From an uncultured delta proteobacterium (lineage in GTDB: Bacteria > Desulfobacterota > RBG-13-43-22): a stretch of 25,952 nt of DNA. This document shows positions 7,032 through 23,209 of this stretch, one piece after another (position 1 is the stretch's first letter; each line of letters begins with the position of its first letter). Under the pieces are notes generated by a model, which saw only the letters and a program-made list of their open reading frames with translations, was not told where the DNA came from and ran no database searches. A program made the position numbers and the translations under genes. Location: positions 1 through 25,952 of the forward strand of contig CAWDKY010000043.1 in NCBI GenBank assembly GCA_963802945.1, written 5' to 3'.

Positions 7032-7078
7032 AAGATTTTGTCTTGTGAAACAAAACAATATTCCAGTTAAGTAAGATT
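7032..7078. promoter_or_regulatory. Regulon enhancer copy 1 (AAGATT-T-TGTCTT-N7-AAAACA-A-TATTCC-N8-AAGATT)
   Basis: Same box array as at 9289, 12939, 18739 and 21807; ends ~100 bp before a sigma54 GG. Confidence 0.6.
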
Positions 7079-7176
7079 TCTATAAAATCATGAAGAATTG
7101 CACGTTTATGCAAGTTTTCTGGCAACATACCGTAATAACGTGACAGTTACGATTATTACTGGTGTGTATTCGCCAA

Positions 7177-7192
7177 TGGCACAGAACTTGTA
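7177..7192 (+). promoter_or_regulatory. Sigma54 promoter TGGCACAGAACTTGTA
   Basis: TGGCAC-N5-TTGTA (GT variant at -12). Confidence 0.75.
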
Positions 7193-7310
7193 TTTTAATA
7201 AGTTTGAATCACGGATTCCTCATCTCAAAACATGAGATCGGCAGTGTCGTTGAAACAGGACTAAAAAATTGTGGGGGCTGCACCAGATAAAACCAAGAAA
7301 GGAGAGCATC

Positions 7311-7656
7311 ATGAAAAAGTTGGAAGTAAAAAGCTTCAGTAATTCGGATGAAGTAAGAAAGTTTGACAAAGGGAAGATAGAACTGATCAAGGTTGGCGGT
7401 GCAATGCGGCTGGAAGTGGTCAGAATCGGTCAAGCCCATAGCAAAGACCGAAAGCTGTCAGGCCCCTCATTTTCAGTATCAGGTCTCTGATACTCTTCGG
7501 GTCAGGATGGATGACGGTACGGAGGGAGAGATCAAAGCTGGTGAGGTCGAATTGATTCCACCGGGACATGACGGCTGGGTCGTTGGGAATGAGCCGGTCG
7601 TCGCAATCGACTTCCAAGGTATGGCCGACTACACCAAGGAAAGCGCAAAAAAATAG
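7311..7656 (+). pseudogene. Cupin-domain protein, frameshifted by an internal deletion
   Basis: AAGGAG RBS; MKKLEVKSFSNSDEVRKFDKGKIELIKVGGAM in one frame continues as GWKWSESVKPIAKTESCQAPHFQY...IPPGHDGWVVGNEPVVAIDFQG in another frame; junction at ~7407. Confidence 0.8.
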
Positions 7657-7778
7657 GAACATCTTAGACGAGGCAGCCTTTTCGGGCAATTTTTTTCCAT
7701 AACAGCCTCTCAATCTTAAAAAGTGGCTGAGTCGATTATCAAATAAGGTCACGATCAACTAACCCATGGAGGTGTCAC

Positions 7779-8078
7779 ATGCGTACGATGATGAAAGTGT
7801 CCATTCCGGTCGAGGCCGGCAACAGAGGGGTGAAAGAAGGCATTCTTCCCAAAACAGTCATGGAATTCGTGGAACAGATGAAGCCGGAGGCCTGCTACTT
7901 CACTACCGAAGGTGGGAAACGAACGGCGTTCTTCTTTTTCGATCTTGCCGATCCAACAATGATGCCGATAGCAGCAGAACCCTTCTTCATGAACCTGAAT
8001 GCGGGTATTGAGGTGTCACCAGCCATGAATCTTGACGACATGAGGGCTGGGGTCGAGAAGGCGATGAAGGGAACCTGA
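7779..8078 (+). CDS. Conserved small hypothetical protein (DUF3303-like alpha/beta protein)
   Basis: GGAGGT RBS; motif KPEACYF...GKRTAFFFFD....M....EPFF..LNA.IE..PAMN.DD recognised. Confidence 0.75.
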   Translation: MRTMMKVSIPVEAGNRGVKEGILPKTVMEFVEQMKPEACYFTTEGGKRTAFFFFDLADPTMMPIAAEPFFMNLNAGIEVSPAMNLDDMRAGVEKAMKGT

Positions 8079-8089
8079 AGCGAGGAAAC

Positions 8090-8116
8090 TTGAGGGGTTC
8101 TTCCTGAAGTCCTCAA
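8090..8116 (+). terminator. Hairpin after ORF 7779 (possible terminator)
   Basis: TTGAGGGGTTC / GAAGTCCTCAA stem with one mismatch and one G-U pair; weak T tail. Confidence 0.45.
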
Positions 8117-8340
8117 ACTTCCATTTTGAATAAAACACAAGAATTTAAACGGTAATAGAGATAAATTACTTTTTCTCTTTTTGTCCTATTATAATTCAAA
8201 ACAAAAATCTTATCAAATAAAAGGAGTGATAGGGTAAGGCGAATGGGAATTGAAAATACCCTATGTTTTTTTATTAGCTCTTTTTTAATACCTGGGAATA
8301 AATGATCCTATAATACAATTACAAGAAGGAGGTTGAGAAC

Positions 8341-8988
8341 ATGCTAGTCCGCGACATTATGACGAACAATGTTATTAGTATCCCCAGTGATACCCTGATG
8401 TTTGAAGCTGAGAAGATTATGGAGTTTCACAAAATCGAACGCCTTCCCGTCGTCGATAAGGGTAAACTGGTGGGGTTGGTGACCAAGGATATCCTTTTGA
8501 AGGCCGGCCCTTCGAAAGCTACCAGCTTTAGCCGCGGGGAAATCTACTATCTCCTGTCTAAGCTGATGGTCAAGGAAATCATGGTAACGGATGTGGTGAC
8601 AGTCTCTCCTGATACTACCGTTGAACAGGCTGCAACCAAGGCTCAGGAAAACAAAGTGGGTTGTCTGCCGGTCGTGGAGGACAATAAGGTTGTTGGGATA
8701 GTAACTACCAATGACTTCTTTTATAAGATACTGAATCCGCTTTTAGGAATTGGTGAGGGGGGCAAGCGGATAATCGTCCAAGGAGTTGGTGATCCAGAGG
8801 GGATGCAAAAGGTGCTCGAAACCGTGCGGAAAGGTGACATTGAGATAAAGAACTTCTGTTCCCTTTCGTCAAGCGGAGCTGGGAAAAATGATTTTGTTCT
8901 TCATCTGAACACCAATGATGTTGCCACCGTACTTAAACAACTTAAGGAGATGGGATTCAAGGCAGAAGAAAGGCCACATACGATCTAA
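8341..8988 (+). CDS. CBS-pair + ACT-like domain protein (AcuB-like)
   Basis: AAGGAGG RBS; two CBS repeats (VRDIMT..V, LPVVD.GKLVGLVT; VKEIM..DV, LPVVE..KVVGIVTTND) plus a C-terminal ACT-like region. Confidence 0.88.
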   Translation: MLVRDIMTNNVISIPSDTLMFEAEKIMEFHKIERLPVVDKGKLVGLVTKDILLKAGPSKATSFSRGEIYYLLSKLMVKEIMVTDVVTVSPDTTVEQAATKAQENKVGCLPVVEDNKVVGIVTTNDFFYKILNPLLGIGEGGKRIIVQGVGDPEGMQKVLETVRKGDIEIKNFCSLSSSGAGKNDFVLHLNTNDVATVLKQLKEMGFKAEERPHTI

Positions 8989-9288
8989 GTTTCGGTTACA
9001 GGCGAGGAAAGGGGTCAGATCTCCACTTGAATTATTGTCAAGGCTTTCCTTAAGATCGTATATCGCTCTTGCAGCCAACGATTAAATGGTTTGATACAAT
9101 GGTTTCTATAGTCTCCCGAGGACTTCGTCAAAAAAAAATAAGGATGCCCTGATTCCCTTTCCATGTAGCAGCTTAGAGTGGCTCCCATTCAAAAAGGCTT
9201 TGGGATGGAAAGGCCGCCCAGTTTCACTAACCTAAAAAATGGCTGAATAAATAATCAGTTGGTGCCCTCAATTACCATTGGTATCTAT

Positions 9289-9334
9289 AAGATTTTATCT
9301 TTTGAAATAATACAATGTCTTGCCGAAAGAGAAA
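9289..9334. promoter_or_regulatory. Regulon enhancer copy 2 (AAGATT-T-TATCTT-N7-AATACA-A-TGTCTT-N7-GAGAAA)
   Basis: 20-bp phased boxes ending 99 bp before the sigma54 GG at 9433. Confidence 0.75.
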
Positions 9335-9431
9335 ATAACCTTCATCTTTGTTTTTAATCGATTCCCTTTATTCTTCTATAACAAATTTTAATCATTAAAG
9401 ATTTCATTTTTTCACTCCCAAGATAAGGCAT

Positions 9432-9447
9432 TGGTCCTATTTTTGCT
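9432..9447 (+). promoter_or_regulatory. Sigma54 promoter TGGTCCTATTTTTGCT
   Basis: GG-N10-GC with TTGCT; upstream of the cytochrome c RBS. Confidence 0.75.
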
Positions 9448-9488
9448 AAATGTTTTTCATATATCCTAATAAAAAGGAGGACAAAACT

Positions 9489-9908
9489 ATGCATAAGAGC
9501 TGGCAGGTCATTCTAGGTTTAATGATTCTGGCTTTTGGGGTGGTAACGGCCTTGGCCTATACCACCGAGCAGGCATTAAATGGAAAGGCGCTTTATGGGA
9601 AATATTGTGCCGTCTGCCATGGGGCCAATGGCGAGGGTGGCACGGTTCCCACAAAATTCGGCAAATATGCTGGGATAAAGGCCTCTCCGGTAGCCGGCTC
9701 TGGATATCTGCCGAAAATGAAGACAGCCGGTCAGGCCTATGATTTTGCAAAGAAAAATATGCCCATGGATAAACCCGATAGTTTAAAGGCCAAGGAATAT
9801 CTGGATATAATCTCCTTTGCCCTACAGGCTAATAACGTTAAGGCTGACGGCAAGTCCCTTTCTCCGGCTTCGGCTAAGAAGATAAAACTGGCCGATGGGG
9901 AATCGTAA
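9489..9908 (+). CDS. Periplasmic monoheme class I cytochrome c
   Basis: AAGGAGG RBS before ATG 9489; Sec signal peptide; G.ALY..YCAVCHG heme motif; NMP distal Met. Confidence 0.92.
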   Translation: MHKSWQVILGLMILAFGVVTALAYTTEQALNGKALYGKYCAVCHGANGEGGTVPTKFGKYAGIKASPVAGSGYLPKMKTAGQAYDFAKKNMPMDKPDSLKAKEYLDIISFALQANNVKADGKSLSPASAKKIKLADGES

Positions 9909-10118
9909 TCCCCTGTAATTGGTATGATCAAGGAGTTCATTCAAGTTGGGGCGGAATACTCTCTCTGCTCGGAGGTAGTTCTTCAGTTTGGTAAGTCATA
10001 AAAAGATGCACTACCATAGGAGAACCCCTATTCTGTGAGAAATGGGATTCTCTGAAACACACCAAGGATTCTTTTGAAAAAAAATAACTCTGATGGTGGA
10101 GGATACGTGGAGGATACA

Positions 10119-10292
10119 ATGATAATAATTATTTTAAATATTATTCTGGTTCTATTCGGAATAACCGCATTGGTAAGTACGTTATCAGTGGAACCGATGA
10201 AGGGCAAAATGAGGGGTAAAATATTAGGCACCAAGTTTGTATTTGATTTAAAAATAGCCGAAAGGAAGACCTGGGAAGACCCTATTTCCTAA
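10119..10292 (+). CDS. Small single-TM hypothetical protein
   Basis: Duplicated GTGGAGGATAC RBS directly before ATG 10119; hydrophobic N-terminal helix. Confidence 0.45.
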   Translation: MIIIILNIILVLFGITALVSTLSVEPMKGKMRGKILGTKFVFDLKIAERKTWEDPIS

Positions 10293-10376
10293 CTTCCGAA
10301 ATTAAATTATTAGTGCCCTGGCGAAACTTTTTGCGATCGTTACAATATTCATCATTTTTAAGGAAAGGAGAGGCCC

Positions 10377-11429
10377 ATGAAAATATTTCAAGGAAAGAAA
10401 CATGGCAGGGTCTATCTAAAAAATTTAGTTTTTTTCGTACTAGAAATTTTCGCCGTTTATCTGTTTCTCATGCGGGTAGCGGCAATGAGTCAGGCCCAGA
10501 CAGTGCAATCGGGGCCTCCGCCAATAGAGCCCACAATTGTCCGTGAGGGTGATTTTGCAGTCCGGCTGTTGTTTGAATTGGGATTGGGAACAGCCCAAGA
10601 GGAGATAGAGGCCGAGACGCAATTAGGTAAAATCGGCATTGTGCCGCGAAATGGCTGGATTGCCGATTACCCTGTAACTCCGGACATCTTCGCTGAAATA
10701 CAAAAAGCCGTCGGTGATGCGGCGAATTCTCAAAAATTATCTATGGGCCGGGAAGAGGCCTTAAGGCGATTGAATAACGCCAACATTGAGCTCGGCCTAT
10801 CCGTAACACCCTATACCGCCCAAAAAGATTATCAAGCCGGATCGTCGGATTCAGGCAGTTACCTCAAGCCCACAGAGATAAACAACTATTATTACACCCA
10901 AGGTCCCCCGGTAGTGACCTACTATAGCCCACCGCCGGATTATTATTACCTATATGCCTGGGTGCCATTTCCTTTCTGGTATTCAAGTTTCTGGTTCCCA
11001 GGATTCTTCGTCCTCCATGATTTCCATAAAACCGTATTCATCCACAACAGAGTGGGATTTATCTCCAATCATTTCAATGACGTTAATTTCCATCGGGTCT
11101 TCCGGATCGATCCATTAACCAGGTTTTCGGGAAGAACCTTTGCCGGCATAGGAGCACCCCGGTCAGGGAATTTTATGTCCACCGGTGTCCCGAGAAGTGA
11201 AATGAGGATATTTCATGGACCACGTGAACATTGGGTCCCAGGCAGCGGAATGATCAGCCCGCCCAATCGTCCCAGGGGAATGATAAGGCCACCTTCCCAA
11301 GGGAACCTCACCGGCCCGCCATCCCGACCCGGAAGACCGGCAGGCCCATCGGCTACCCACTCTGGTGGAAGAGGTGGACCACCTTCCGGCGGGAGGCAAA
11401 ATTTTCCCGGGAGGGACCGGGGAAGATAA
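10377..11429 (+). CDS. Exported or membrane-anchored hypothetical protein with an aromatic-rich core and Pro/Gly/Arg-rich tail
   Basis: AAGGAGAG RBS; N-terminal hydrophobic segment; NGWIADYPVTPDI; YYSPPPDYYYLYAWVPFPFW; low-complexity C-terminus. Confidence 0.8.
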   Translation: MKIFQGKKHGRVYLKNLVFFVLEIFAVYLFLMRVAAMSQAQTVQSGPPPIEPTIVREGDFAVRLLFELGLGTAQEEIEAETQLGKIGIVPRNGWIADYPVTPDIFAEIQKAVGDAANSQKLSMGREEALRRLNNANIELGLSVTPYTAQKDYQAGSSDSGSYLKPTEINNYYYTQGPPVVTYYSPPPDYYYLYAWVPFPFWYSSFWFPGFFVLHDFHKTVFIHNRVGFISNHFNDVNFHRVFRIDPLTRFSGRTFAGIGAPRSGNFMSTGVPRSEMRIFHGPREHWVPGSGMISPPNRPRGMIRPPSQGNLTGPPSRPGRPAGPSATHSGGRGGPPSGGRQNFPGRDRGR

Positions 11430-11643
11430 AGAACGATTCGGATCAAAGTTCAACATTGGCCCGGAAAAGAAGTGGTCTCCAAAAATTGGCCAATGAGATA
11501 ATCTCTAAGTTAGTCCAGAGAAAGGAGGGGGCTATGGCCAAAAAAGAAGTGAAGATAACTTAAGTTAAAGGCCGGGGCAGTCTAATGCGGTGTTTTGCTC
11601 CAGTTGAGTAAAACTGTAATTTGATTCGACCCAAGGAGGGACT

Positions 11644-12804
11644 ATGAAGATCGATAGAAGAGATTTTTTAAAACTTATGGGTTTTGGCGGAGTTGTATTT
11701 GCTTCCGGTCTGGGCAGTTTAAGCAATCAGGCACAGGCAGTATCCGGGGAGAGAGATTTCTTCTTTGTCCAATTATCCGATACCCACTGGGGCTTCAAGA
11801 ATCCGGCCATTAACCCGTATGCGGCCGATACTTTGAAAAAGACTATTGCCATAATCAATGAATTGAATCCGCAGCCGGATTTCATCGTATTTACCGGCGA
11901 TTTGACCCAGACCACGGATGACGTCCAAGAAAGAAGAAAAAGGTTGACGGAATTTCGTGATCTGCCCCGTGGCTTCAAAACAAAAAATATCAAATTCCTG
12001 CCGGGAGAACACGATGCCGCCCTCGATAACGGTGCGGCCTTTCAAGAGGTTTTTGGGAAAAGCTATTATTCCTTCGAGCATAAAGGCATTCATTTCATCG
12101 CCATCGATAATGTTTCGGATCCAACTTCCAGCATCGGTGAAAAGCAGCTGCAGTGGCTCGAAAAGGAATTGCAGCAACTGGGTAAAGAAGAGAGAATCGT
12201 GGTTCTGACGCACCGGCCGTTTTTCTCCTTATATCCGCAATGGGATTGGTGGACACGGGACGGGGACAAGGCTTTGGATTTGCTTAAGCCTTATAAAAAT
12301 ATGATGATCTTATACGGCCATATTCATCAGGAAAATCATCATAAGGACGGGCAGATTGCCGAGCATGCGGCCATGGGCATGATGTATCCGTTGCCTGCTC
12401 CCGGTTCGGTGCCGAAGAAAGAACCATTAGCCTGGGATCCGGCTGTACCTTACAAAGGCCTGGGATATCGTTTGGTGGCGGTCAAGAAAACCGGATACAC
12501 CTTGACCGAATATCCGGTGAATCTCAAGGAACAGGTCATTACCATTATGGCTAAAAAATTCGAATATTCACCGGCGGAAATCAGGATCAAAAAAGGCGTT
12601 CCGGTCATCCTGGAACTGACTTCGCTGGATAGGTTGCACGGATTCAATTGCCCGGAGTTAGGCCTGCGCACAGATATCTATCCCGGCAAAATATCCAGGC
12701 TGGAAATTCTGGCCCAAAAAACAGGGACCTTCGAATTCTTTTGTGATGTTTTCTGCGGAGAAGGTCATGAGACGATGACCGGAAAAATTATTATGGAGGA
12801 TTGA
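11644..12804 (+). CDS. Tat-exported calcineurin-like metallophosphoesterase fused to a CuA cupredoxin (COX II/NosZ-like) domain
   Basis: DRRDFLK Tat motif; DTH, GDL, GEHD, THRP, GHIH; C-terminal HGF...CDVFCGEGHETM. Confidence 0.9.
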   Translation: MKIDRRDFLKLMGFGGVVFASGLGSLSNQAQAVSGERDFFFVQLSDTHWGFKNPAINPYAADTLKKTIAIINELNPQPDFIVFTGDLTQTTDDVQERRKRLTEFRDLPRGFKTKNIKFLPGEHDAALDNGAAFQEVFGKSYYSFEHKGIHFIAIDNVSDPTSSIGEKQLQWLEKELQQLGKEERIVVLTHRPFFSLYPQWDWWTRDGDKALDLLKPYKNMMILYGHIHQENHHKDGQIAEHAAMGMMYPLPAPGSVPKKEPLAWDPAVPYKGLGYRLVAVKKTGYTLTEYPVNLKEQVITIMAKKFEYSPAEIRIKKGVPVILELTSLDRLHGFNCPELGLRTDIYPGKISRLEILAQKTGTFEFFCDVFCGEGHETMTGKIIMED

Positions 12805-12938
12805 CCTATTGGAAAGCAATGATAAAGAAACAGGCTTTAGCATTTTGGTTATTATAACAAAAATCATTGATAAGTGAAACTGTTCTCCCCTTTTCACTAT
12901 TCAGGCTCCTTATCTTTCAAGGCCCTAATAATTAAAAT

Positions 12939-12997
12939 TGTTCCCTTTCAAAAGACAATGTCTTAATAAATAAGACAATGTCTTGTTTAAAAAGACA
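12939..12997. promoter_or_regulatory. Regulon enhancer copy 3 (best consensus): TGTTCC-N7-AAGACA-A-TGTCTT-N7-AAGACA-A-TGTCTT-N7-AAGACA
   Basis: Three boxes at an exact 20-bp period, two of them with perfect inverted half-sites. Confidence 0.85.
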
Positions 12998-13079
12998 TAT
13001 TACATTCCCAGGATTGCCTGTTTTATCTTCAATTAATTAGATTTGTTGCAAGTTTTTATTTTTCGCCCCATTTAAGCTT

Positions 13080-13095
13080 TGGCAAGCTTCTTGTA
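13080..13095 (+). promoter_or_regulatory. Sigma54 promoter TGGCAAGCTTCTTGTA
   Basis: TGGCA...TTGTA with GG-N10-GT spacing. Confidence 0.7.
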
Positions 13096-13213
13096 AGGTT
13101 TTCAAACAAAGGTCCAAATACTTTCCTGATTATTACCTTATTTAGGCATGGGGGGAAGGGCATCAAAATGGGGCATCAGCAAAAAGATGTCGGCTGAATA
13201 GGAAGGAGTACCC

Positions 13214-13534
13214 ATGAATGGAAATAATAATTTTATAGATAAATGGCTCTCTGCGAATATTAAAGAAATCATCGATTGTCCCCACCAGCCTGGGAACTTG
13301 AAGATCTCCAAACAAGCCTGTCTAAAGCGCCTTCAGGCCTCCGATGTAGTGAGGTTTGAAAAAAAGGCTCAAGATGATCTTTTCATATTTGGCGTTAAGC
13401 AGGGGCTTTTAAAATGTAAAGACTGTTCAGTGGTAAACAAGTCCCTGAAACAGTCTTTGGAAGCCACGTTCGAGCCATTAGGCAATAGTGAGGTCCGAAT
13501 GAGTTTCATAAGACTAAAAACGAATTCTTATTAA
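13214..13534 (+). CDS. Hypothetical 4-Cys protein (CPH...C...CKDC), possibly metal or Fe-S binding
   Basis: AAGGAG RBS; four Cys; sits between a sigma54 promoter and a ferredoxin gene. Confidence 0.7.
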   Translation: MNGNNNFIDKWLSANIKEIIDCPHQPGNLKISKQACLKRLQASDVVRFEKKAQDDLFIFGVKQGLLKCKDCSVVNKSLKQSLEATFEPLGNSEVRMSFIRLKTNSY

Positions 13535-13558
13535 TGATCCGAAGATAAGGAGTTTCTG

Positions 13559-13747
13559 ATGAAGGTGGTAATTAATGAAGAGGAATGTATCGGCTGCGGA
13601 TCTTGTTCTGAAGTCTGTCCTGAAGTATTTCAAATGAATCAGGAGAAAGAAAAATCCGAGGTAATTCTCGCTGAAGGGGGACCGACGGATTGTATCAATG
13701 AAGCCATAGAGACCTGCCCGGTGTCCTGTATCCAATGGGAGGAATAA
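13559..13747 (+). CDS. fdx: Monocluster [4Fe-4S]/[3Fe-4S] ferredoxin
   Basis: CIGCGSCSEVCP...AIETCPVSCI; 62 aa, acidic; AAGGAG RBS. Confidence 0.95.
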   Translation: MKVVINEEECIGCGSCSEVCPEVFQMNQEKEKSEVILAEGGPTDCINEAIETCPVSCIQWEE

Positions 13748-13838
13748 ACATGGGGAGAGGTCAACATCCATAATCATCTTAAAAATCTTTTCTTTTAGTT
13801 AGTTATTTCTTTAATTTTAAAAATACATCATCCGTTGC

Positions 13839-13867
13839 TTTACAATTTTTAGGGTCTATTATAAAAT
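13839..13867 (+). promoter_or_regulatory. Sigma70-type promoter TTTACA-17-TAAAAT for the hybrid kinase and bEBP operon
   Basis: Near-consensus hexamers with a 17-bp spacer. Confidence 0.5.
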
Positions 13868-13888
13868 ACTTACCAAAAGAAAGAACCT

Positions 13889-16800
13889 TTGCCGATGACC
13901 TCAAAACACGCAGGAAAGACCAAAGCAAAATCAGGTAGCACCATGAAAAAAGCCAAGCCCCATGTCAAACCTGAAGTTGTAAAGAAGAAGTTACAGGCGC
14001 ACATTGGGGAGGCCGAGGAGAATCTTCGGCCGGTTCACAAAAATGAAATCACTGCCCGGATTGAAAAAAGATCCCAAGGAAAACGAGTTTTCACCCTTGA
14101 GAGCACCGAGCATCCCTACCGCGTCTTTTGCGAGACCATAAAAGAATGTACGGCGATCATTACCAAGGACGGAACGATCCTCCACTGCAACAGGCGTCTG
14201 GCCGAATTGCTCTCCACATCCATCGACAAAATCATAAAGACATCCTTCTATAATCTCATCGTGCCTGAGGACAGACCGACGTTTAAAACTAAAATCCAGG
14301 AAACCGCCTCCAAGGGGTTCCAGGGAGAATTCCTTCTCAAAACATCGGGAAAAAGAACCATCCCTGTCCTACTCTCGACCAGTCCTGTTATTATCGACAT
14401 GGATAATTTTTGTGTAGTGATCACCGACTTAAGTGAGCAAAAACGGGTCCAAAAGGCGTTGGAAGCCGAGATCCTCGTCCGCAAGGAGACGGAAAAAGCA
14501 CTGGGACGATTCAATGGGGCCTTAGAACAGCGCGTGAAAGAACGAACGGCTGAGCTGCAGAGCCTGAACAAACAGTTGCAGGTTGAACTAGTCGAACGCA
14601 AGCGGGTGGAAGAGGAAACCCAGGGACTATTGAGGGTTATTCAACAGGAGAAAGACAGACTGTCGGTATTAGTAAACAGCATGAACGATGAGGTCTGGTT
14701 TGCCGACACACAGAAGAGATTCACGCTGGCAAACCCATCGGCACTCAAGGAGTTCGGCCTTGGCGCTGTTGATAGGATAGATGTGGAAAAATTGGCCGAG
14801 AGCCTGGATGTATACCTCTCTGACGGCAGCCCCCGCCCGGTCGAGGAAGCCCCGCCATTGCGGGCGCTTAAAGGGGAAGTAGTGATGGGCCAGGAAGAAA
14901 TAGTCCGAACCCCCAAAACCGGAGAGTTGCGCTACCGCGAAGTTAGTGCCTCCCCGGTGAGGGATGCCGGTGGTGCCATCATTGGGTCAGTATCGGTCGT
15001 GCGTGACATCACCGAACGCAAGCAAATGGAGGAAAGGTTGGCCCGTCTGGCTTCTTTCCCCGAGCTCAACCCGAATCCCATCGTTGAGTCCGACCTAAGC
15101 GGCCATATTCAATATCTCAATCCGTCGGCTCAGGATCTTTTCCCTGATCTGCAGACCGTGGGATCGTTGCATCCCTGGTTATCCGACGTGGAATCTTTGG
15201 TGGATAGGTGCTTGAAGGGAGGGAACCCTCTTCATCGGGAGGTGAAAATCGGGGAATCCTGGTATCAACAAACCATCAATTATGCTAAAAAATACCAACG
15301 GCTTCGTTTTTATGGAACCGATATCACTGAACGTAAACAGGCTGAAGAGAGGCTTCTACAGGCCTACAAAGGACTTGAACAACGGATAGAGGAGCGGACG
15401 GTCGAGCTTAAGGAACAGGCCGATCTACTGGATCTGGCCCACGACGCCATTATTGTCAGAGACCTCAACGGGAAGATCAATTTCTGGAATTTCGGCGCCG
15501 AAGCCACATACGGGTGGAAGCGTGAGGAGGCCATTGGTAAAATTATGCACAAACTCCTCCACACAAGGTTCTCTATACCGCTCGACATAATCGTAGATAT
15601 CGCCTCCCATGAAGGCTTCTGGGAAGGTGACCTAATTCATACCTGCAAAAATGGTAAACAGATCGTTGTGCATAGCCGCTGGGCAATGCGGCTAGGGAAA
15701 ACCACTGAATCCCAAGAAATATTGGAGATCACCCACGATATAACCTCTCGTAAACAGGCGGAGGAATCCCTCCGCCAAGCCGGGGCCTACAACAGAAGTC
15801 TCATAGAAGCCAGTCTCGATCCCTTGGTGACCATCGATCCCGAGGGCATGATCAGTGATGTAAATACGGCTACAGAACTCGTCACCGGCTACTCCCGAGA
15901 GCACCTTTTCGGGACAGACTTTTCGAATTATTTTTCCGACCCCCAAAAAGCAAGGGCCGGCTATAAACAGGTATTTAAAAAAGGGTTTGTTCGCGATTAT
16001 GCCCTCGAAATCCGACATAAGGACGGTCACCTCACTCCGGTCTTATACAATGCTTCGGTCTTTAAAGATGAAACAGGGAAAGTCATCGGTGTTTTCGCCG
16101 CAGCCAGGGATATCGCAGAAAAAAATAAGCTGGAGAAACAGCTACGCCATTCTCAGACGATGGAGATTATCGGCACCTTAGCCGGTGGAATTGCCCACGA
16201 CTTCAACAATATCATAGCCGGGATCATCGGGTTGGGCGAAATGGTCATCGAAGATCTTCCCAAGGGGGACCCCAACTACCGGAAACTGGAACTGATCCTT
16301 AAAGGGGCCTTCCGGGGCCGGGATGTCATCAAGCAGATTCTCGCTTTTAGCCGCCAGAGCGAGCAAGAGAAAAAGCCCATTTCGATGGGCCTTATTTTAA
16401 GTGAAGCCATGCCGTTTATCAGGGCTTCAATACCTTCCACCATTGAAATCCGCCAAAATATTTTCACCAAATCAGACCTTATTCAGGGCGATAAGACACA
16501 AATTCATCAGATTATCCTAAATCTCTGTACCAATGCAGCTCATGCCATGCGGGATCAAGGCGGGATTTTAGAAATAAGTCTCAAAGATGCCCACTTTGAG
16601 GCCAAAGATCCTGATTTACCCCTTGAGCTAAAACCCGGATCTTATTTGAGCCTGACCGTAAGCGACACGGGTTGCGGAATCGAACCGGAAATCATAGAAA
16701 GGATCTTCGATCCCTTCTATACCACCAAGTTGACGGGGGAAGGAACCGGCCTGGGGCTTTCCGTGGTGCACGGTATTGTCAAGAGCCATAATGGCACCAT

Positions 16801-17306
16801 TAAAGTTTACAGCCAACCCGGGCAGGGCTCCGCCTTTCATATCTTCATTCCCAAGATGGCGTCCGAGTCTTCTGAGGAAGCAGAAGAGATTTCCGATTCT
16901 CCAGGGGGGCATGAGCATATCCTCGTTGTGGATGATGAAGAAATTCTGGTTGAAATGAGCACGCAACGATTAGAGCGTCTGGGTTATAGGGCGACAGGCA
17001 AACTCAGCAGCCATGAGGCCCTGGAGGCCTTTCGAAACGGAACCCGATAAATTTAATCTTGTGGTGACTGATTATACCATGCCCAATATGACCGGGCTTG
17101 AGCTGGCCAGAGAAATGCTCCGGATAAGGCCTGACCTCCCTATCGTCATATGTTCCGGATTAAACGAGCCGGTCCCCATGGAAAAGGTTAAAGCGGTCGG
17201 CGTGAAAGAGTTTTATGTCAAACCTATTGATAAAGATGATTTTGCCGTCCTTATCCGCCGGGTGTTGGATCGAGCCAAAGACCAAAATCAAAAGGAGAGC
17301 CGATGA
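13889..17306 (+). CDS. Cytoplasmic multi-PAS hybrid histidine kinase (5 PAS-HisKA-HATPase-REC); REC split by a 1-nt frameshift at ~17035
   Basis: Repeated PAS/PAC ends (TDLSEQK, RDITERK, TDITERK, HDITSRK, RDIAEK); LAGGIAHDFNN; NLCTNAAHAM; GTGLGL; REC starts at ILVVDDE and continues in another frame as TEPDKFNLVVTDYTMP...VKP. Exact start uncertain. Confidence 0.9.
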
Positions 17307-18706
17307 TGGCCCAAGTTCTTATCATTGACGACGATGAGATTTTCTCCGAGATGCTTTCCAATATGGTAGAACGGCTGGGTCATAAGGCCGCCAGGGTGTT
17401 TAACCTTAAAGACGGTTTGGAAACGACCTCATCCGGGGCGTTCGATGTGGTCTTCCTGGATATAAAGCTGCCTGATGGAAACGGCCTGGACATCTTACCC
17501 AAGATTCGGGAATCGGCCTCCTCGCCGGAAATAATCATCATCACCGGATTTGGGAATTTAGATGGGGCTGAACTGGCGATTAAAAACGGCGCCTGGGATT
17601 ACATTCAAAAAGCTTCTTCATTAAAAGAAATGCAGCTTCCCTTGCTTCGAGCGCTGGAGTACAGGGCAGAGAAAACCTCCAAGCAATCCCAGGTAAATTT
17701 AGCGCTGGAAGGGATAATAGGAAACAGCCCACAGATGAGAGCCAGTCAAAACCTTATCGCCCAGGCGGCCCATAACGAAAGCAATGTCCTTATCAGCGGT
17801 GAAACCGGTACGGGTAAGGAGCTTTTTGCCTTGGCCATTCACAACAACAGCCGGCGGTCCGATAAAAGTTTTGTCGTCGTGGACTGCGCTTCCCTGCCCC
17901 AGACCCTGGTCGAGAGCATACTCTTCGGCCATGAAAAAGGGGCCTTTACCGGAGCCGATAAACCAAGAGAGGGTCTTATCAAACAGGCCAATGGGGGCGC
18001 CCTTTTTTTGGACGAGGTGGGGGAGCTTCCTATGGCTCTCCAGAAAAATTTCCTTCGGGTCTTGCAGGAACATCGTTTTCGTCCGGTAGGCGGTGAACGG
18101 GAGATCGAAAGCGACTTCAGGTTGATATCAGCCACCAATAAGGACCTTAACCGAATGGTGGAACACGGGCAATTTCGCGAGGACCTCTTGTTTCGTATCT
18201 GCACCTTGACCATAGATTTGCCCCCTTTGAGGGAGCGTACCGAAGATATTATGGAATTATTGAGTTACTATATGACCAAGCTCTGTGAACGGTATGGTAT
18301 TGGAATAAAAGGATACTCCAAGGAATACCAGGAAGCCTTCATGTCCTATCCCTGGCCCGGGAACGTTAGAGAACTGGTTAACGCCATAGAAAGATCCATT
18401 TCGGCGGCCATTGATCAACCAACCCTTTTCCCCAAACATCTCCCGTCTGAAATACGTATTCGGCTGAAGAAATTGGAAATGAATCAGAAATCAGAACCGC
18501 AGCCGATCAAGAAGGAAATCCCATCAAAGCCTTTATCCCTGGGGACACTCAAAGATTTCAGAGAAACCGCTGTTGCCGAAGCGGAAAAGCAGTACCTTAA
18601 AAACTTAATCGATATGACCAATCACAATATTAAAGAAGCCTGCCAGATATCCGGCCTTTCACGCCCCAGGTTATATGCCCTTTTAAAAAAGTTCTCTTTA
18701 ACCTAA
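17303..18706 (+). CDS. Sigma54-dependent response regulator (REC-AAA+-HTH, NtrC family)
   Basis: IIDDD, FLDIKLP; GETGTGKE; intact GAFTGA; FLDEVGE; WPGNVREL; HTH ACQISGLSRPRLYALLKK; ATGA overlap with the kinase REC frame. Confidence 0.95.
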   Translation: MMAQVLIIDDDEIFSEMLSNMVERLGHKAARVFNLKDGLETTSSGAFDVVFLDIKLPDGNGLDILPKIRESASSPEIIIITGFGNLDGAELAIKNGAWDYIQKASSLKEMQLPLLRALEYRAEKTSKQSQVNLALEGIIGNSPQMRASQNLIAQAAHNESNVLISGETGTGKELFALAIHNNSRRSDKSFVVVDCASLPQTLVESILFGHEKGAFTGADKPREGLIKQANGGALFLDEVGELPMALQKNFLRVLQEHRFRPVGGEREIESDFRLISATNKDLNRMVEHGQFREDLLFRICTLTIDLPPLRERTEDIMELLSYYMTKLCERYGIGIKGYSKEYQEAFMSYPWPGNVRELVNAIERSISAAIDQPTLFPKHLPSEIRIRLKKLEMNQKSEPQPIKKEIPSKPLSLGTLKDFRETAVAEAEKQYLKNLIDMTNHNIKEACQISGLSRPRLYALLKKFSLT

Positions 18707-18738
18707 GAACGATTAGAAACTGCCTTCTGCCGGTTTTT

Positions 18739-18799
18739 CGTATTATCCAACAAGACATCATCTTTTCCAATGATATGTTTTGTCTTGCGGAAAGAGAAA
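18739..18799. promoter_or_regulatory. Regulon enhancer copy 4 (CGTATT-N7-AAGACA-T-CATCTT-N7-GATATG-TTT-TGTCTT-N7-GAGAAA)
   Basis: Homologous to copies 2 and 5; ends 98 bp before the GG at 18897. Confidence 0.75.
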
Positions 18800-18895
18800 A
18801 AATTGCTCCTTTCCTGCTTTATCCGATTTTTTTGTTTCCCTATAACAACTTTTAATCATTGGTGATTTAAGTTATATTTTCCCCAAATAGATTAT

Positions 18896-18911
18896 TGGCA
18901 TCCTTCTTGTA
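18896..18911 (+). promoter_or_regulatory. Sigma54 promoter TGGCATCCTTCTTGTA
   Basis: TGGCA...TTGTA with correct spacing. Confidence 0.75.
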
Positions 18912-18999
18912 TTATCTTTCAGTAAACGCAGTCAACAGCAGTAAATATTAATTGCCCGCATTTTGAGAAGCGGAGTTCAGTGTAGAAGGGAGGTGAAAG

Positions 19000-19392
19000 A
19001 TGATGAATAAAACCAAAAAGTATTTTTTTATCCTGGGCCTTTTGGTGCTTCTATTGGTACCTGCTTTGGTAGCCAATGCGGAGACCATAACCGGCAAGTT
19101 GGAAGGACTTACTTGCCTTATTCAGGGTTATATTTGCCCGATCGACAAAGCTGATCCCATGATTAATTTGGAAAAAGATTTCGTGGTGGTAACGGCGAGT
19201 GGCAATTATTATTTCCTGACGAATATCGGTTTAGGCCTCAAAGCCAGACATGCCCTGGAGGTGGTGGAAGTGACTGGGGATGTAAATCCTAAGTACAAAA
19301 CCGTCATGGTCAAAACGTTGAAGGTCGGCGGAAAAGTCGTTTGGGATCAAGAGATGGAAAATTCAATGATGCAAGAAATGCGTATTAAGTAA
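19000..19392 (+). CDS. Exported hypothetical protein with a C-x6-CP motif
   Basis: GGAGGTG RBS; signal peptide ending ANA|E; CLIQGYICP; beta-rich. Confidence 0.8.
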   Translation: MMNKTKKYFFILGLLVLLLVPALVANAETITGKLEGLTCLIQGYICPIDKADPMINLEKDFVVVTASGNYYFLTNIGLGLKARHALEVVEVTGDVNPKYKTVMVKTLKVGGKVVWDQEMENSMMQEMRIK

Positions 19393-19422
19393 AGAAATAA
19401 GCTCAGCATTAACAACCTAGAA

Positions 19423-19458
19423 GATAAGAGGCGGCCGTTTTCCCCGTCGCCTCTTATC
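19423..19458 (+). terminator. Strong hairpin between ORF 19000 and apbE
   Basis: GATAAGAGGCG / CGCCTCTTATC perfect 11-bp stem; T-rich stretch shortly after. Confidence 0.65.
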
Positions 19459-19553
19459 GCTTATAATCTTTTTGTTGATCAGTGCATGTTTTAAGTAACA
19501 CCCCGTCTTTATCTTATTGGTACTCCATTTCACCCTTCGCCAGGAGATCAAAT

Positions 19554-20597
19554 ATGATATTCTTGATGAATAGACGCACCTTTATTCAAAGTCTGTGTAT
19601 GTTAAGTGCCGGCTGGACGGTCAAAGGCTGGGCAAATCCTCTGGGGCACACTCGCTTTTCTTCGACCCTGAATAAGGTCTCCGAGACAAGAAATCTTATG
19701 GGTACCTTTGTCACCATTACCCTTTTTCATCCTTCTCGTGAACAGGCCCAGGCTGTCCTCGGACAGGCCTTTGATCGGATGGAAAACCTGATTCAGATCT
19801 TCAATCGCCATGAGGATAGCTCGCCGGTGAGTTACTTAAACGAACGAGGCTTCATCAATGATCCTCCACCAGAACTGATTAAAGTACTTCGGCGATCGAT
19901 GATGATCCACTTCCGGACCCACGGTGCCTTTGACATTACCATTAAACCCGTTTTGGACCTTTATGAGGCTGAAGTTGAAAAGGAATCGGGCCGGCTTCCA
20001 TCAACCGCATCCATCCAGGCTGCCTTGGGACGGGTAGGTGCCGCAAAAGTGGAGATTGGTCCCCAAAAAATTACCTTTGGTAAAGAGGGTATGGGGATTA
20101 CTCTTGATGGAATAGCCAAAGGTACTATTGTGGATGAGACCATTGCCTTTCTCCAAAGAAATGGAATTCAGCACGCCCTGGTAGTTGCCGGTGGTGACCT
20201 GAGGGTGATAGGGGGACATTCTGCAGGTTTGCCCTGGAGGATTGCCGTTTATGACCCTACCAAGGGAACAAAATCTCAGGAAATAATTTCCTTAGTGGAA
20301 GGTGCGGTGGCCACTTCCGGAAACTATATGGTTTATTTTGACCAGGAAAAAATCCATCATCACATCCTTGCCCCTGAAAGCGGGGTATCGTCTCCTTGGT
20401 TGGTTAGTGCTACGGTTATAGCCCCCTCAGCTGAAGAAGCCGATGCCCTATCCACCTCGCTTATGGTGTTGAATCCCGAAGATGGCGGGGCTCTTGTCAA
20501 CCGGGATGAGCGTCTTGCCTCCAGGCTCATAACCCGTGAAAGCAGGAAAGTCCATTCGTTGAAGTGGCCGAAAACTTCTCAGACGACGGAAGGATAA
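19554..20597 (+). CDS. apbE: FAD:protein FMN transferase (ApbE family), Tat-exported
   Basis: AGGAGA RBS; NRRTFI Tat motif; MGTFV; GAFDITI.P; LDGIAKG; AGGD; AVATSGNY; SATVIAP...ADALST. Confidence 0.93.
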   Translation: MIFLMNRRTFIQSLCMLSAGWTVKGWANPLGHTRFSSTLNKVSETRNLMGTFVTITLFHPSREQAQAVLGQAFDRMENLIQIFNRHEDSSPVSYLNERGFINDPPPELIKVLRRSMMIHFRTHGAFDITIKPVLDLYEAEVEKESGRLPSTASIQAALGRVGAAKVEIGPQKITFGKEGMGITLDGIAKGTIVDETIAFLQRNGIQHALVVAGGDLRVIGGHSAGLPWRIAVYDPTKGTKSQEIISLVEGAVATSGNYMVYFDQEKIHHHILAPESGVSSPWLVSATVIAPSAEEADALSTSLMVLNPEDGGALVNRDERLASRLITRESRKVHSLKWPKTSQTTEG

Positions 20598-20604
20598 AAC
20601 GATC

Positions 20605-21729
20605 ATGCTTAAGAGATCATCCTTTATTCCAATACTGTTAGGATTGGGAATGGCCATAGGGGTTTTCGGGTTGATAACCGAATCCTATGCTCAAGAAAAC
20701 CATTTGATAAAAGAAGGGGAGCTATTTCCAGGGGTTGTCTTGAAAACCCCTGGCGACTTTAAGGACAGGGTCTATCTTGAGATGTTGGGCAAAGAGAGTT
20801 TTGCTATTAAAGAAATAAAGGCCAAAGTTATTTTAGTGGAAATTATGAATGTTTACTGTGCCAGCTGCCAGAACCTGGTCCCGATATACAATAAACTGTT
20901 TGCCCTGATTCAATCAACCCCTGAGACCAAGAAAGGGATTAAAATGATCGGGATTGCTGCGGGAAATAATGATCAAGAAGTTAAAATTTTTCGGGATCAT
21001 TTCCAGGTGCCTTATCCAATCATTCCAGATCCTAAATATGTCATGCATGAGGCTATTGGAGGAAGCCCAACCCCTTTCTCTATTTTCGTCAGACGGGAAG
21101 CAAAAAGAAAAGATGTTCTGGTAGCCGGGACCCACTTGGGTTTTGACGAACATTATAAAGAATTGTTTCAGCAACTGAAAAGATTGATGAGGGTTGATCT
21201 GACAACCATTCGTAAAAAAGGGGAAAAAATCGAGAGTAAGGTTTTAACGATCAAATCCCCTTACAGTGAAGAAGAACTTCAGACCAAGATCAAAGAAGCT
21301 TTTACCAAGGCAGATGGGCGGTTAACCGGCTTCGGTAAAATTCTAATTAGTGGAGGTAGGGGAATATATGTCGGAATGGTTGGAAAGGAGGGACAGGCAG
21401 AAACCCAACTTTTTGCCGAGGTGGTCAGCCAACATCCCACCTGTGATGTCTGCCATGATATCCATTTTATTTATACCTTCGAAGCCTCCGGAAAGATCCT
21501 TGATTTTATACCTCTTCAATTATCAAAATATGGCAATATCCCCTGGGATGAAGCCGATATCGCCAAGATGCGCCGCAGAATTATCAACAGATATATTTAT
21601 CGCCCCTTCTCTTTTGATGCCCAAGTCGACGCCGTTACCTCGGCGACTATTACTTCGGCTGCAATTTTTAAAGGCCTTGATAAAGGACAGGTCCTCTTTG
21701 AAGAACTTAAAAAAAAGGGGTTGATTTAG
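20605..21729 (+). CDS. Exported TlpA/thioredoxin-like (CxxC) domain fused to a CxxCH-containing FMN-binding-like domain
   Basis: Signal peptide (SYA|Q); VILVEIMNVYCASCQ and TPF thioredoxin fold; CDVCH; C-terminal VDAVTSATITS flavinylation-type motif; 7 bp after apbE. Confidence 0.82.
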   Translation: MLKRSSFIPILLGLGMAIGVFGLITESYAQENHLIKEGELFPGVVLKTPGDFKDRVYLEMLGKESFAIKEIKAKVILVEIMNVYCASCQNLVPIYNKLFALIQSTPETKKGIKMIGIAAGNNDQEVKIFRDHFQVPYPIIPDPKYVMHEAIGGSPTPFSIFVRREAKRKDVLVAGTHLGFDEHYKELFQQLKRLMRVDLTTIRKKGEKIESKVLTIKSPYSEEELQTKIKEAFTKADGRLTGFGKILISGGRGIYVGMVGKEGQAETQLFAEVVSQHPTCDVCHDIHFIYTFEASGKILDFIPLQLSKYGNIPWDEADIAKMRRRIINRYIYRPFSFDAQVDAVTSATITSAAIFKGLDKGQVLFEELKKKGLI

Positions 21730-21806
21730 GTCCTATCCCAGTCCTTCAGTAGATATAATATAGAGACAACTGTGAGGCCCTTAATTTTTGCCTGATAGTA
21801 TTCTAC

Positions 21807-21852
21807 AAGACTTTTTCTTTTTAAATGATACGATTTCTTATTGAAAGAGAAA
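21807..21852. promoter_or_regulatory. Regulon enhancer copy 5 (AAGACT-T-TTTCTT-N7-GATACG-A-TTTCTT-N7-GAGAAA)
   Basis: 20-bp phased boxes ending 99 bp before the GG at 21951. Confidence 0.72.
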
Positions 21853-21949
21853 ATAGACGTCATTCGTGTTCTAATCAACCTCCCCTATTTTATTTCTAAC
21901 TTATAATAATTATTAAAGATATCTAAATTTTTTCCCCAAGACCACATCT

Positions 21950-21965
21950 TGGTATCTATCTTGCT
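21950..21965 (+). promoter_or_regulatory. Sigma54 promoter TGGTATCTATCTTGCT
   Basis: GG-N10-GC with TTGCT; overlaps the ORF-track TTG start, so the true start lies downstream. Confidence 0.75.
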
Positions 21966-21999
21966 TTTCCATTTAATAGACATTATGGAAACTACAGAT

Positions 22000-22401
22000 A
22001 TGATCAAAAAAGAAGGAAAGGGATTACGACCAATAACAAATATCCTTTTCTATTCTCCCCAAGTCGACAAACCAGAGAATGAGTTAATTAAATCATTGGA
22101 AGGTTTGATCCCGGGGAAAAAAGTCAAAATTTATAGGACCAAGGAAAGCCTTTTAGCAAGACTCCAAAAACCACTGGCTCAAAAGCCGGTTTTGGTCCTT
22201 TTTATTTATAGCCGGGAGGATCTTGATACCTTCATAGCGTATAAGCCTCTATTAAATGACATCCCCATAATACTCATTCTTCCGGAAAGAGAAAGCTATA
22301 TGATTGCCAGGGGCCATAGCCTGCGACCCCGTTTCTTAAGTTTTAATGACAACGGTTTAAACGAGGTTAAAGGGGTATTAAAAAAGATGTTATGTGCTTA
22401 A
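22000..22401 (+). CDS. Degenerate receiver-like (pseudo-REC) hypothetical protein
   Basis: Alternating beta/alpha pattern (NILFYS, VLVLF, IPIILILP, L.PRFL) without the acidic pocket or phospho-Asp; start could be 21985 or 22000. Confidence 0.7.
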   Translation: MIKKEGKGLRPITNILFYSPQVDKPENELIKSLEGLIPGKKVKIYRTKESLLARLQKPLAQKPVLVLFIYSREDLDTFIAYKPLLNDIPIILILPERESYMIARGHSLRPRFLSFNDNGLNEVKGVLKKMLCA

Positions 22402-22431
22402 CCGTTTAAATTGGAAAGGAGGCCTAACCTA

Positions 22432-22626
22432 ATGGATGAATTAAAAAATTATAACCTGTTACCCACGGATTTATTAAGCCAGGAGGAAATCAATTTTATT
22501 TTAATGGATTCTTCAAATGACATTCACTCTTCAAAAATAAAGGACAGCATCAGGGCCGAAGCCATGGATATTTTAAAAAAAGACGTTAGCGGAACCTTAT
22601 TGCTGCCTTTTATGAAAACCGATTAA
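22432..22626 (+). CDS. Small hypothetical protein
   Basis: AAGGAGG RBS 9 nt before ATG 22432; operonic position. Confidence 0.55.
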   Translation: MDELKNYNLLPTDLLSQEEINFILMDSSNDIHSSKIKDSIRAEAMDILKKDVSGTLLLPFMKTD

Positions 22627-22671
22627 AGAGAAGAAAGCCATGATTCAGATAAATTTTAAAGGAGATCCAAA

Positions 22672-23118
22672 ATGTTTTCACCCAAAAGTATTCTGGTTCC
22701 AACCGATTTTTCCGAGTTTTCGGATAAGGCGTTGCAACAGGCGATAGATATCGCCAAACAATTCAAAAGCAAGATCTATCTATTGCATATCGTCGGAATA
22801 GTCATTCAATGTGCCGTCGACTATTGTCTGGATTTGCAAACGGTAAATGAAGTGGAACAAAAAAGTATCGACAGTGCTAAAAAGATGGCTGAAGAACAAC
22901 TGGCTAAATTTCCGGATTCTAAATCGGTTGATATCTCCGTTGATATCCGGAAAGGGACCCCCTATGAAGAAATCTTAAAAGATCAACAGGAAAAAAAGAT
23001 CGACCTGATCGTGATTGCCTCGCATGGGAAAACAGGCTTGAGGCACTATCTTATCGGAAGCGTGGCCGAAAAGGTGGTACAAGTTGCCAAATGCCCGGTT
23101 CTTCTGGTGAGGGGTTGA
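22672..23118 (+). CDS. Universal stress protein (UspA family)
   Basis: ILVPTDFS; G.PYEEIL; DLIVIASHGKTG...LIGSVAEKVV..AKCPVLLVR. Confidence 0.95.
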   Translation: MFSPKSILVPTDFSEFSDKALQQAIDIAKQFKSKIYLLHIVGIVIQCAVDYCLDLQTVNEVEQKSIDSAKKMAEEQLAKFPDSKSVDISVDIRKGTPYEEILKDQQEKKIDLIVIASHGKTGLRHYLIGSVAEKVVQVAKCPVLLVRG

Positions 23119-23169
23119 AGTTAAAGAGAAAAGGAAAACATAAAAGTAAAGGTCGAATAAGCATCTTGG

Positions 23170-23209
23170 CATCTCGTCCCTCGGACTTTCCGTCCCAAGG
23201 GACAAGATG
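23170..23209. other. Long imperfect intergenic hairpin between usp and the SOR-like gene
   Basis: CATCTCGTCCCTCGGAC / GTCCCAAGGGACAAGATG arms; no U-tail. Confidence 0.5.

Follow-up and report, generated by a model that had tools for sequence, protein, structure and literature searches.

In a 25,952-nucleotide stretch of DNA from an uncultured delta proteobacterium (contig CAWDKY010000043.1 of assembly GCA_963802945.1; hereafter the window), we found five intergenic regions, P1 to P5, in which an array of alternating AAGAC and GTCTT half-sites precedes an element of the sigma-54 (-24/-12) promoter type. We propose that these five sites form a single regulon of the NtrC type, in which the arrays would act as enhancers and a multi-PAS histidine kinase and the bacterial enhancer-binding protein (bEBP) encoded directly after it, bEBP2, would act as the activators, a proposal in which our confidence is slightly better than even. 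An earlier note, prepared from the letters alone, had placed such arrays at five positions. Direct reading of the sequence located all five there (Table 1), and the distances that the note had given from the end of each array to the GG of the promoter element (100, 99, 84, 98 and 99 bp for P1 to P5) proved exact by coordinate arithmetic.

In an unbiased scan of the whole window for every inverted dyad with half-sites of 4-6 nt and gaps of 0-12 nt, AAGA-N5-TCTT ranked first among dyads other than homopolymers. Seven of its eight matches fall in the five regions and the eighth is a coding-region match at 17965; whole-window shuffles that preserve dinucleotides predict 0.88 matches, and none of 500 shuffles reached eight. 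When shuffling was restricted to intergenic DNA, seven matches were observed where 0.29 were expected (0/500 shuffles reached seven), and the motif is thus commoner than in shuffled intergenic DNA, the comparison on which the earlier note had let its claim depend. With up to two mismatches, TGTCTT-N7-AAGACA, the form in which the motif had originally been cast, gave eight matches against 0.32 expected under the same intergenic shuffles (0/500), and with up to three mismatches it gave 25 matches against 10.6 expected (0/100 shuffles reached 25), nine of which fall inside the five arrays. The control pattern TCTT-N7-AAGA occurred twice against 0.28 expected, a count reached by 13 of the 500 intergenic shuffles. 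An unbiased direct-repeat finder also recovered the array, as its three largest families (D1-D3).

As a control set we used loci of bEBP paralogues: a scan of 185,579 species genomes for relatives of bEBP2 returned 602 matching stretches, of which 80 were kept (1,205,020 bp). In these 80 loci AAGAY-N3-RTCTT had two matches, as compared to six in the window, and no true array was found, each pattern giving one chance pair at 19-22 bp spacing.

We regarded as a bEBP enhancer, or upstream activating sequence, at least two inverted repeats that are in helical phase and lie upstream of the -24 element by about 80-200 bp. The array units lie 83-145 bp before the TGG at a 20-bp period, apart from a single 22-bp interval in P4, and so have this geometry. 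Relative to the predicted transcription starts, which for sigma-54 promoters are expected some 12 nt past the -12 element, the arrays span approximately -171 to -125, and that of P3 spans -167 to -109.

Half-sites, promoter elements and the encoded regulators

The earlier note had described TGTCTT-N7-AAGACA as common to all five regions. This wording held for P3, where the motif is perfect twice, and failed elsewhere, as the other boxes carry one to three mismatches in 12 positions. What all five regions have in common is a series in which AAGAC and GTCTT half-sites alternate, with gaps of 3 and 7 bp between them and a 20-bp period. Counted from the first AAGAY of each region, AAGAC at position 0 matches in 4, 4, 5, 5 and 5 of its five letters in P1 to P5, GTCTT at position 8 in 5, 4, 5, 4 and 4, AAGAC at position 20 in 4, 4, 5, 2 and 3, and GTCTT at position 28 in 1, 5, 5 and 4 in P1, P2, P3 and P5, the P4 copy being shifted by 2. 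A third, weaker unit reads GAAAGAGAAAA in P2, P4 and P5, and the five perfect half-sites of P3 make up two perfect copies of TGTCTT-N7-AAGACA and two of AAGACAATGTCTT.

Two registers, AAGAC-N3-GTCTT and GTCTT-N7-AAGAC, describe the arrays equally well. In favor of the N3 register, no other form is matched exactly in every one of the five regions, and a conserved partner 12 bp upstream is lacking for the leftmost AAGAY. In favor of the N7 register, the 2-nt insertion in P4 has lengthened the N3 gap, and both N7 gaps are unchanged. For a dimer with a Fis-type helix-turn-helix (HTH) domain, half-site centers 12-13 bp apart fit better than centers 8 bp apart. We lean toward N7, the register of the earlier note, as the predicted dimer site.

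The -24/-12 elements proposed earlier at 7177, 9432, 13080, 18896 and 21950 were each read as TGG-N8-TTG(C/T). In the canonical sigma-54 promoter, TGGCAC-N5-TTGC, a GG and a GC doublet stand ten bases apart. All five contain GG-N10-G, with GC at -12 in two of them (P2 and P5) and GT in the other three. Of 12 matches to TGG-N8-TTG(C/T) on both strands of the window, nine lie in intergenic DNA, which makes up 25% of the window (binomial p = 3e-4). Each of the nine is on the coding strand and faces a gene: P1 to P5 and the sites at 71, 4247, 4388 and 4674. The TGG of P1 to P5 is located 134, 57, 134, 104 and 35 bp from the start codon, a distance suited to a leader. By consensus matching, no sigma-70-like site in the right orientation was found between array and gene at P1 to P4; one such site overlaps the P5 leader, and two others stand before a CBS gene and before the kinase gene. 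The last of these could supply basal expression of the kinase. From their pattern and placement, we consider it likely that the five sites are sigma-54 promoters.

A complete bEBP gene was found directly after the PAS kinase gene, as the earlier note had claimed, with P3 upstream of their operon and P4 directly downstream of it. Of the five PAS domains that the note had assigned to the kinase, Pfam identified four; the fifth corresponds to a PAS-sized blank segment. bEBP2 matched the Response_reg (78.6 bits), Sigma54_activat (223.1 bits) and HTH_8 (23.7 bits; cut-off 22) models, and its translation contains both GAFTGA and the usual sequence context of the REC acceptor aspartate, as in a bEBP of the NtrC type.

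A second bEBP, bEBP1, is 39% identical to bEBP2 over the REC and AAA+ domains, and the two proteins' C-terminal DNA-binding domains do not align. The sigma-54 contact loop of bEBP1 reads GAYSGA where GAFTGA is normal. Sigma-54-like elements lie after its gene at 4247-4261 (TGGCAGCATCATTGT) and 4674-4688 (TGGCATTATCATTGC), the latter 35 bp before a REC gene and without an AAGAC/GTCTT array. Near the 4674 element another dyad, GGGTAAAAAYCCC, is present in two copies on opposite strands (4541 and 4598), and this pair is a candidate enhancer for bEBP1.

Kinship of the regions and competing explanations

Several observations weigh against a shared regulon, among them the kinship of the regions themselves. 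P2, P4 and P5 align over approximately 170 bp with a mean column identity of 67% (INDEPENDENCE heads this comparison), and they are paralogous cassettes, which leaves about three independent cases rather than five and means that the counts given above overstate the evidence. After removal of the array and core promoter, their spacers were still similar (z from 300 shuffles: P2-P4, 6.0, and P2-P5, 7.4, with 0/300 shuffles each; P4-P5, 2.9, with 9/300). It could be argued from this that the regions resemble one another through a past duplication of promoter regions, or by chance, without being regulated together, which we regard as very improbable. The spacers of P1 and P3 are unrelated to the cassettes and to each other (mostly z < 2; P3-P5, 2.9, with 3/300), yet the same half-site series recurs before these promoters at enhancer distance, so the motif is not merely a duplication relic. 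In addition, an nhmmer profile built from P2, P4 and P5 alone recovered P3 as its best outside match (E = 2.5e-4), and the array and -24/-12 element are the best-conserved blocks within the cassettes. The P1 array is marginal by the same profile (E = 0.14), ranking after a look-alike in coding DNA at 22267-22294 (E = 0.007); it is rescued by position because its first dyad sits 145 bp from the TGG, as compared to 143, 144 and 143 bp in P2, P4 and P5, and chance placement of the dyad at this cassette distance would rarely be expected. We rejected the look-alike (ATAATACTCATTCTTCCGGAAAGAGAAA, resembling the proximal unit) as a further copy of the array, as it lies in the first P5 gene with no promoter-like element after it.

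Other points against the regulon concern its components. TTGT takes the place of TTGC in three of the five -12 elements, and the -24 element of P2 is TGGTCC; TTGT is found at -12 in 7 of 87 listed Desulfovibrio vulgaris promoters (counted by eye in supplement 5 of PMC4641369) and is thus a tolerated but minority variant. The total of 12 TGG-N8-TTG(C/T) matches, against 7.1 expected, is weak because 17 of 300 shuffles reach it. The P3 array is offset from the other four by about 15 bp, or by about 5 bp in the other register. Matches with up to one mismatch to the consensus of integration host factor (IHF), WATCAANNNNTTR, were not enriched (43 against 35.8 expected); only one IHF-like match (9396-9408) falls in a spacer, and a search of the spacers for A-tract phasing gave no common period, with inconsistent AA/TT periodicity. 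The C-terminal REC domain of the kinase (16974-17306) is split by a frameshift near 17040, the first part stopping at 17050 and the remainder continuing in another frame up to the start of bEBP2. The first P1 gene, a cupin gene, is broken, and no rpoN gene was found in the window. The three loci with the best bEBP2 relatives (L001-L003), which have neither the motif nor the synteny, also belong here.

Position alone ties the motif to bEBP2, and a different bEBP could bind the arrays, either bEBP1 or one whose gene lies beyond the window. The positions of P1 and P2 are between the two bEBP genes and closer to the middle of the window, and Desulfobacteria can carry 52-69 EBP genes (PMC12316311), so that a cognate activator encoded elsewhere is conceivable and is a further point against our proposal. 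We consider a different binder unlikely, although worth keeping in view. The bEBP1 gene has its own, better sigma-54-like element after it at 4674, and the motif-free state of that promoter, together with DNA-binding domains that do not align, favors bEBP2 short of proof; bEBP1 also has GAYSGA instead of GAFTGA. The bEBP2 operon, by contrast, is flanked by P3 and P4, and EBP genes are mostly co-localized with their targets (PMC8359166, citing Kazakov 2015). We infer that bEBP2 binds the arrays, and consider this rather probable. Alternatively, the 13-bp AAGAY-N3-RTCTT could be the operator of a dimeric regulator other than a bEBP, a repressor or co-regulator acting alongside or instead of one. 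Such an operator would account for AAGA-N5-TCTT being the element exactly common to all five regions and for N3 half-sites 8 bp apart center to center, which is short for a Fis-type HTH dimer, and the extra perfect copy at 21938-21950 adjoins the -24 element of P5, where it is placed to block the holoenzyme. However, the Pfam scan recognized DNA-binding domains in the two bEBPs and in no further protein of the window, and the main copies lie 108-145 bp upstream, at the distance of an enhancer rather than an operator. The P4 insertion, within the N3 gap and sparing the N7 gaps, is also what would be expected if the N7 dyad is constrained, and the operator explanation therefore seems improbable to us.

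If the arrays are enhancers for bEBP2, as we propose, a three-unit distal enhancer with a 20-bp period would serve each sigma-54 promoter (GG-N10-G(C/T)). Dimers of the NtrC-type response regulator would bind neighboring dyads along a single helical face, dimer occupancy would nucleate the AAA+ hexamer, and the AT-rich spacer would loop so that the hexamer could remodel the closed complex of the sigma-54 holoenzyme. The multi-PAS kinase encoded just upstream would phosphorylate bEBP2, and P3, which has the strongest array, would drive the operon whose last genes are those of the kinase and bEBP2, providing positive autoregulation atop a basal sigma-70-like promoter. We infer that oxygen or a redox signal is the likeliest input, because the predicted output consists of periplasmic and cytoplasmic redox and stress proteins. 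A more complete joint reading, which we offer tentatively and hold to be doubtful as a whole, is that a sulfate-reducer-like anaerobe carries a compact sigma-54 oxygen/redox defense island (superoxide reductase, Usp, a flavinylated periplasmic thiol oxidoreductase, cytochrome c and a CuA protein) under one autoregulating multi-PAS kinase-bEBP pair with at least five promoters. This island would have grown as a ~170-bp cassette, made up of enhancer, spacer and -24/-12 element, was copied before new genes, and the six half-sites would provide one for each DNA-binding domain of the hexamer.

Spacer elements and gene content of the window

Some further elements were noted in the spacers. An AT-rich block, TCTATAACAAnTTTTAATCATT, is conserved in the P2 and P4 spacers and partly in that of P5 (approximately 9380-9400, 18846-18866 and 21895-21915), and it does not match the IHF consensus. 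The perfect dyad AAGACCACATCTT (21938-21950), at which a terminator scan flagged a small hairpin, adjoins the -24 element of P5; P2 has CCAAGAT there. It is possible that this dyad is a proximal half-site, an operator or a chance occurrence. Between the P1 array and its -24 element lies an imperfect inverted repeat, GTAATAACGT...ACGATTATTAC (7131-7158), which might be a site for another regulator.

Table 1. Positions of the arrays, promoter elements, spacers and genes of the window
Feature	Positions	Strand	Reading or content	Basis or remark
P1 upstream array	7032..7078		AAGAT-ttt-GTCTT, gtgaaac, AAAAC; third unit degenerate	direct reading, dyad scan, repeat finder
P2 upstream array	9289..9334		cassette class	direct reading, dyad scan, repeat finder
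P3 upstream array	12939..12997		best copy	direct reading, dyad scan, nhmmer
P4 upstream array	18739..18799		cassette class; 2-nt insertion between boxes	direct reading, repeat finder
P5 upstream array	21807..21852		cassette class	direct reading, repeat finder
P1 -24/-12	7177..7191	+	TGGCACAGAACTTGT	predicted start ~7203
P2 -24/-12	9432..9446	+	TGGTCCTATTTTTGC	predicted start ~9458
P3 -24/-12	13080..13094	+	TGGCAAGCTTCTTGT	predicted start ~13106
P4 -24/-12	18896..18910	+	TGGCATCCTTCTTGT	predicted start ~18922
P5 -24/-12	21950..21964	+	TGGTATCTATCTTGC	predicted start ~21976
P2 spacer	9335..9431	+	AT-rich; includes TCTATAACAAATTTTAATCATT and TTTTCACTCCCAAGA	homologous to P4 and P5 spacers
P4 spacer	18800..18895	+		homologous to P2 spacer
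P5 spacer	21853..21949	+	terminates in AAGACCACATCTT dyad	homologous to P2 spacer
Sigma-70-like site	13839..13867	+	TTTACA-17-TAAAAT; before kinase gene	consensus match only
Multi-PAS hybrid histidine kinase	13889..17306	+	four PAS, HisKA, HATPase_c, C-terminal REC	Pfam
bEBP2, NtrC-type activator	17303..18706	+	REC, AAA+ with GAFTGA, HTH_8	
Cupin gene, broken (P1)	7311..7656	+	N-terminal 32 codons in one frame, rest in another	
96-aa protein	7788..8078	+	no family	after cupin gene
Membrane-anchored monohaem cytochrome c (P2)	9489..9908	+	true start after ribosome-binding site at 9472-9480	domain scan
350-aa protein and Tat metallophosphoesterase-cupredoxin	10377..12804	+		domain scans
P3 genes	13214..13747	+	106-aa four-Cys protein (no family); 62-aa 4Fe-4S ferredoxin	domain scans
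P4 genes	19000..21729	+	exported 130-aa protein; ApbE flavin transferase; exported thioredoxin-like protein with FMN_bind-like end	
P5 genes	21985..23622	+	138-aa protein (no family); small open reading frame; Usp; one-iron superoxide reductase (neelaredoxin type)	
Cache/HAMP histidine kinase	854-2866	+		domain scans
bEBP1	2870-4231	+	REC, AAA+, HTH_8	domain scans
REC protein	4723-5121	+		domain scans
REC-kinase	5096-6253	+		domain scans
CBS protein	8341-8988	+	own sigma-70-like site	downstream of 96-aa gene
DUF1579 protein and SSB	after 24189			domain scans

The window has a G+C content of approximately 45%, and all of its sizeable genes lie on the + strand. Pfam and NCBIfam scans confirmed the cytochrome c, ferredoxin, ApbE, Usp and superoxide reductase-like labels of the earlier note. 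Its label of a thioredoxin-FMN protein is weak, as matches exist but all of their Pfam and NCBIfam scores are below the curated cut-offs, and its pseudo-REC label had no support from Pfam, from PDB sequences or from a BLAST comparison with a REC domain. The cupin label holds by homologues, the gene itself being broken. In comparison to the 122-aa homologues, among them P0001, it lacks about eight codons between GGAM and GWKWS, where the frame changes, and the gene is either a pseudogene or the product of an assembly error. No Pfam model or PDB sequence matched the cupin fragments; the 89-aa piece had 4315 homologues (best, 85% identical), which were 122-aa proteins, several of them with PF07883, and one, from a Thermodesulfobacteriota metagenome-assembled genome (MAG), is named cupin domain-containing protein. 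Homologues of 70-85% identity are encoded on contigs as long as 2 Mb.

The 96-aa gene is probably co-transcribed with the cupin gene from P1, and the genes for the 350-aa protein and the metallophosphoesterase-cupredoxin may belong to the P2 unit. The 350-aa protein (10377-11429) has an N-terminal membrane segment, a Pro/Gly/Arg-rich tail and no Pfam or NCBIfam family. The protein encoded at 11644-12804 is an unusual fusion of a Tat-signal metallophosphoesterase to a cupredoxin, with COX2, CoxB and NosZ C-terminal matches. Its C-terminus reads C-x3-C-x3-H-x2-M, which we take to be as in CuA sites. In the P4 unit, the position of ApbE beside a protein with an FMN-binding domain fits extracytosolic flavinylation systems (PMC8238504). 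The 96-, 106-, 130-, 138- and 350-aa proteins had no match in Pfam (E up to 5), NCBIfam or PDB sequences. No tRNA genes were found by a tRNA scan of the window, and an Rfam scan with E up to 1 yielded three matches, each scoring far under the gathering score of its family.

Relatives, known systems and implications

The best relatives of bEBP2, L001 to L003, are from Desulfobacterales MAGs and are 53, 50 and 48% identical to it; all others are 44% identical or lower. The genes downstream of the relative in L003 are unrelated to those of the window. Two candidate sites near these relatives were rejected: the repeat resembling TGTC in L001 is another dyad, and a palindrome after the relative in L002 (3070-3110) is a long near-perfect hairpin with a T-run, that is, a terminator. 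After this hairpin, L002 has a canonical TGGCAC-N5-TTGC at 3176, without an AAGAC/GTCTT array.

The enhancer design is known from GlrR, NorR and the Desulfovibrio EBP regulons, and by this comparison the circuit appears to be of an ordinary bacterial type. GlrR (QseF/YfhA), which acts at glmY and glmZ of Enterobacteriaceae, is a REC-AAA+-HTH response regulator with an adjacent kinase gene, and its targets have three TGTC...GACA inverted repeats more than 100 bp upstream of a sigma-54 promoter, the outermost being the least conserved (PMC3045617). Unlike the window, that system has TGTC-N10-GACA rather than TGTC-N11-GACA, documented IHF sites, which were not found here, and two small RNA genes as targets in place of five protein operons; moreover, bEBP2 is not an orthologue of GlrR (NCBIfam GlrR score of 295 against a cut-off of 763). 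At Escherichia coli norVW, three adjacent dyads at about -137 to -84 are all required and template the active oligomer of NorR, a stress-responsive bEBP (PMC2831303). In contrast to the system proposed here, NorR has a core of GT-N7-AC, senses through a GAF domain rather than through REC and a kinase, and serves one promoter rather than five.

In the EBP regulons of D. vulgaris Hildenborough (Kazakov et al. 2015; PMC4641369), EBP genes lie beside sigma-54 promoters (supplements 3 and 5), palindromes of 16-18 bp stand in tandem at 19-23 bp (supplement 3; for example, the DVU0621 sites at -322/-302 and the DVU0539/0946 sites at -195/-172/-153), and multi-promoter regulons occur. A search of all five supplements did not find TGTCTT-N7-AAGACA among the D. 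vulgaris motifs, its hexamers being present only within unrelated sites; the nearest motifs are those of DVU3023 (TGTCC-N8-GGACA) and DVU0619 (AAGAAC-N5-GTTCTT). Unlike in the window, no superoxide reductase or flavinylation module was noticed among the functions in supplement 5. OrpR of D. vulgaris and PexR of Myxococcus xanthus are also bEBPs that tie sigma-54 transcription to the redox or peroxide state (for OrpR, PMC8359166). OrpR, which flanks its two target operons, relies on IHF (PMC8359166); it is a one-component sensor of the PAS/Fe-S type that has two targets and a GC-rich palindrome of 17 bp, whereas here a separate multi-PAS kinase is the proposed sensor and the motif is AT-rich. 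A literature search, judged by titles and abstract openings, found no paper describing the motif as such an enhancer, or a superoxide reductase regulon driven by sigma-54.

The 2-nt insertion in P4 provides a natural experiment on enhancer grammar, and the three paralogous cassettes would be an example of regulon growth by promoter-cassette duplication. Otherwise, this is a routine regulon prediction of a kind made by the dozen in Desulfovibrio, with the description of the motif now corrected. In the literature searched, this redox role by way of sigma-54 is given to one-component regulators (such as OrpR or PexR) and not to a kinase-bEBP pair. If our proposal is true, the window would offer a compact and easily testable model of how a PAS kinase acts through sigma-54 on oxygen/redox defense in an anaerobe of the Desulfobacteria type.

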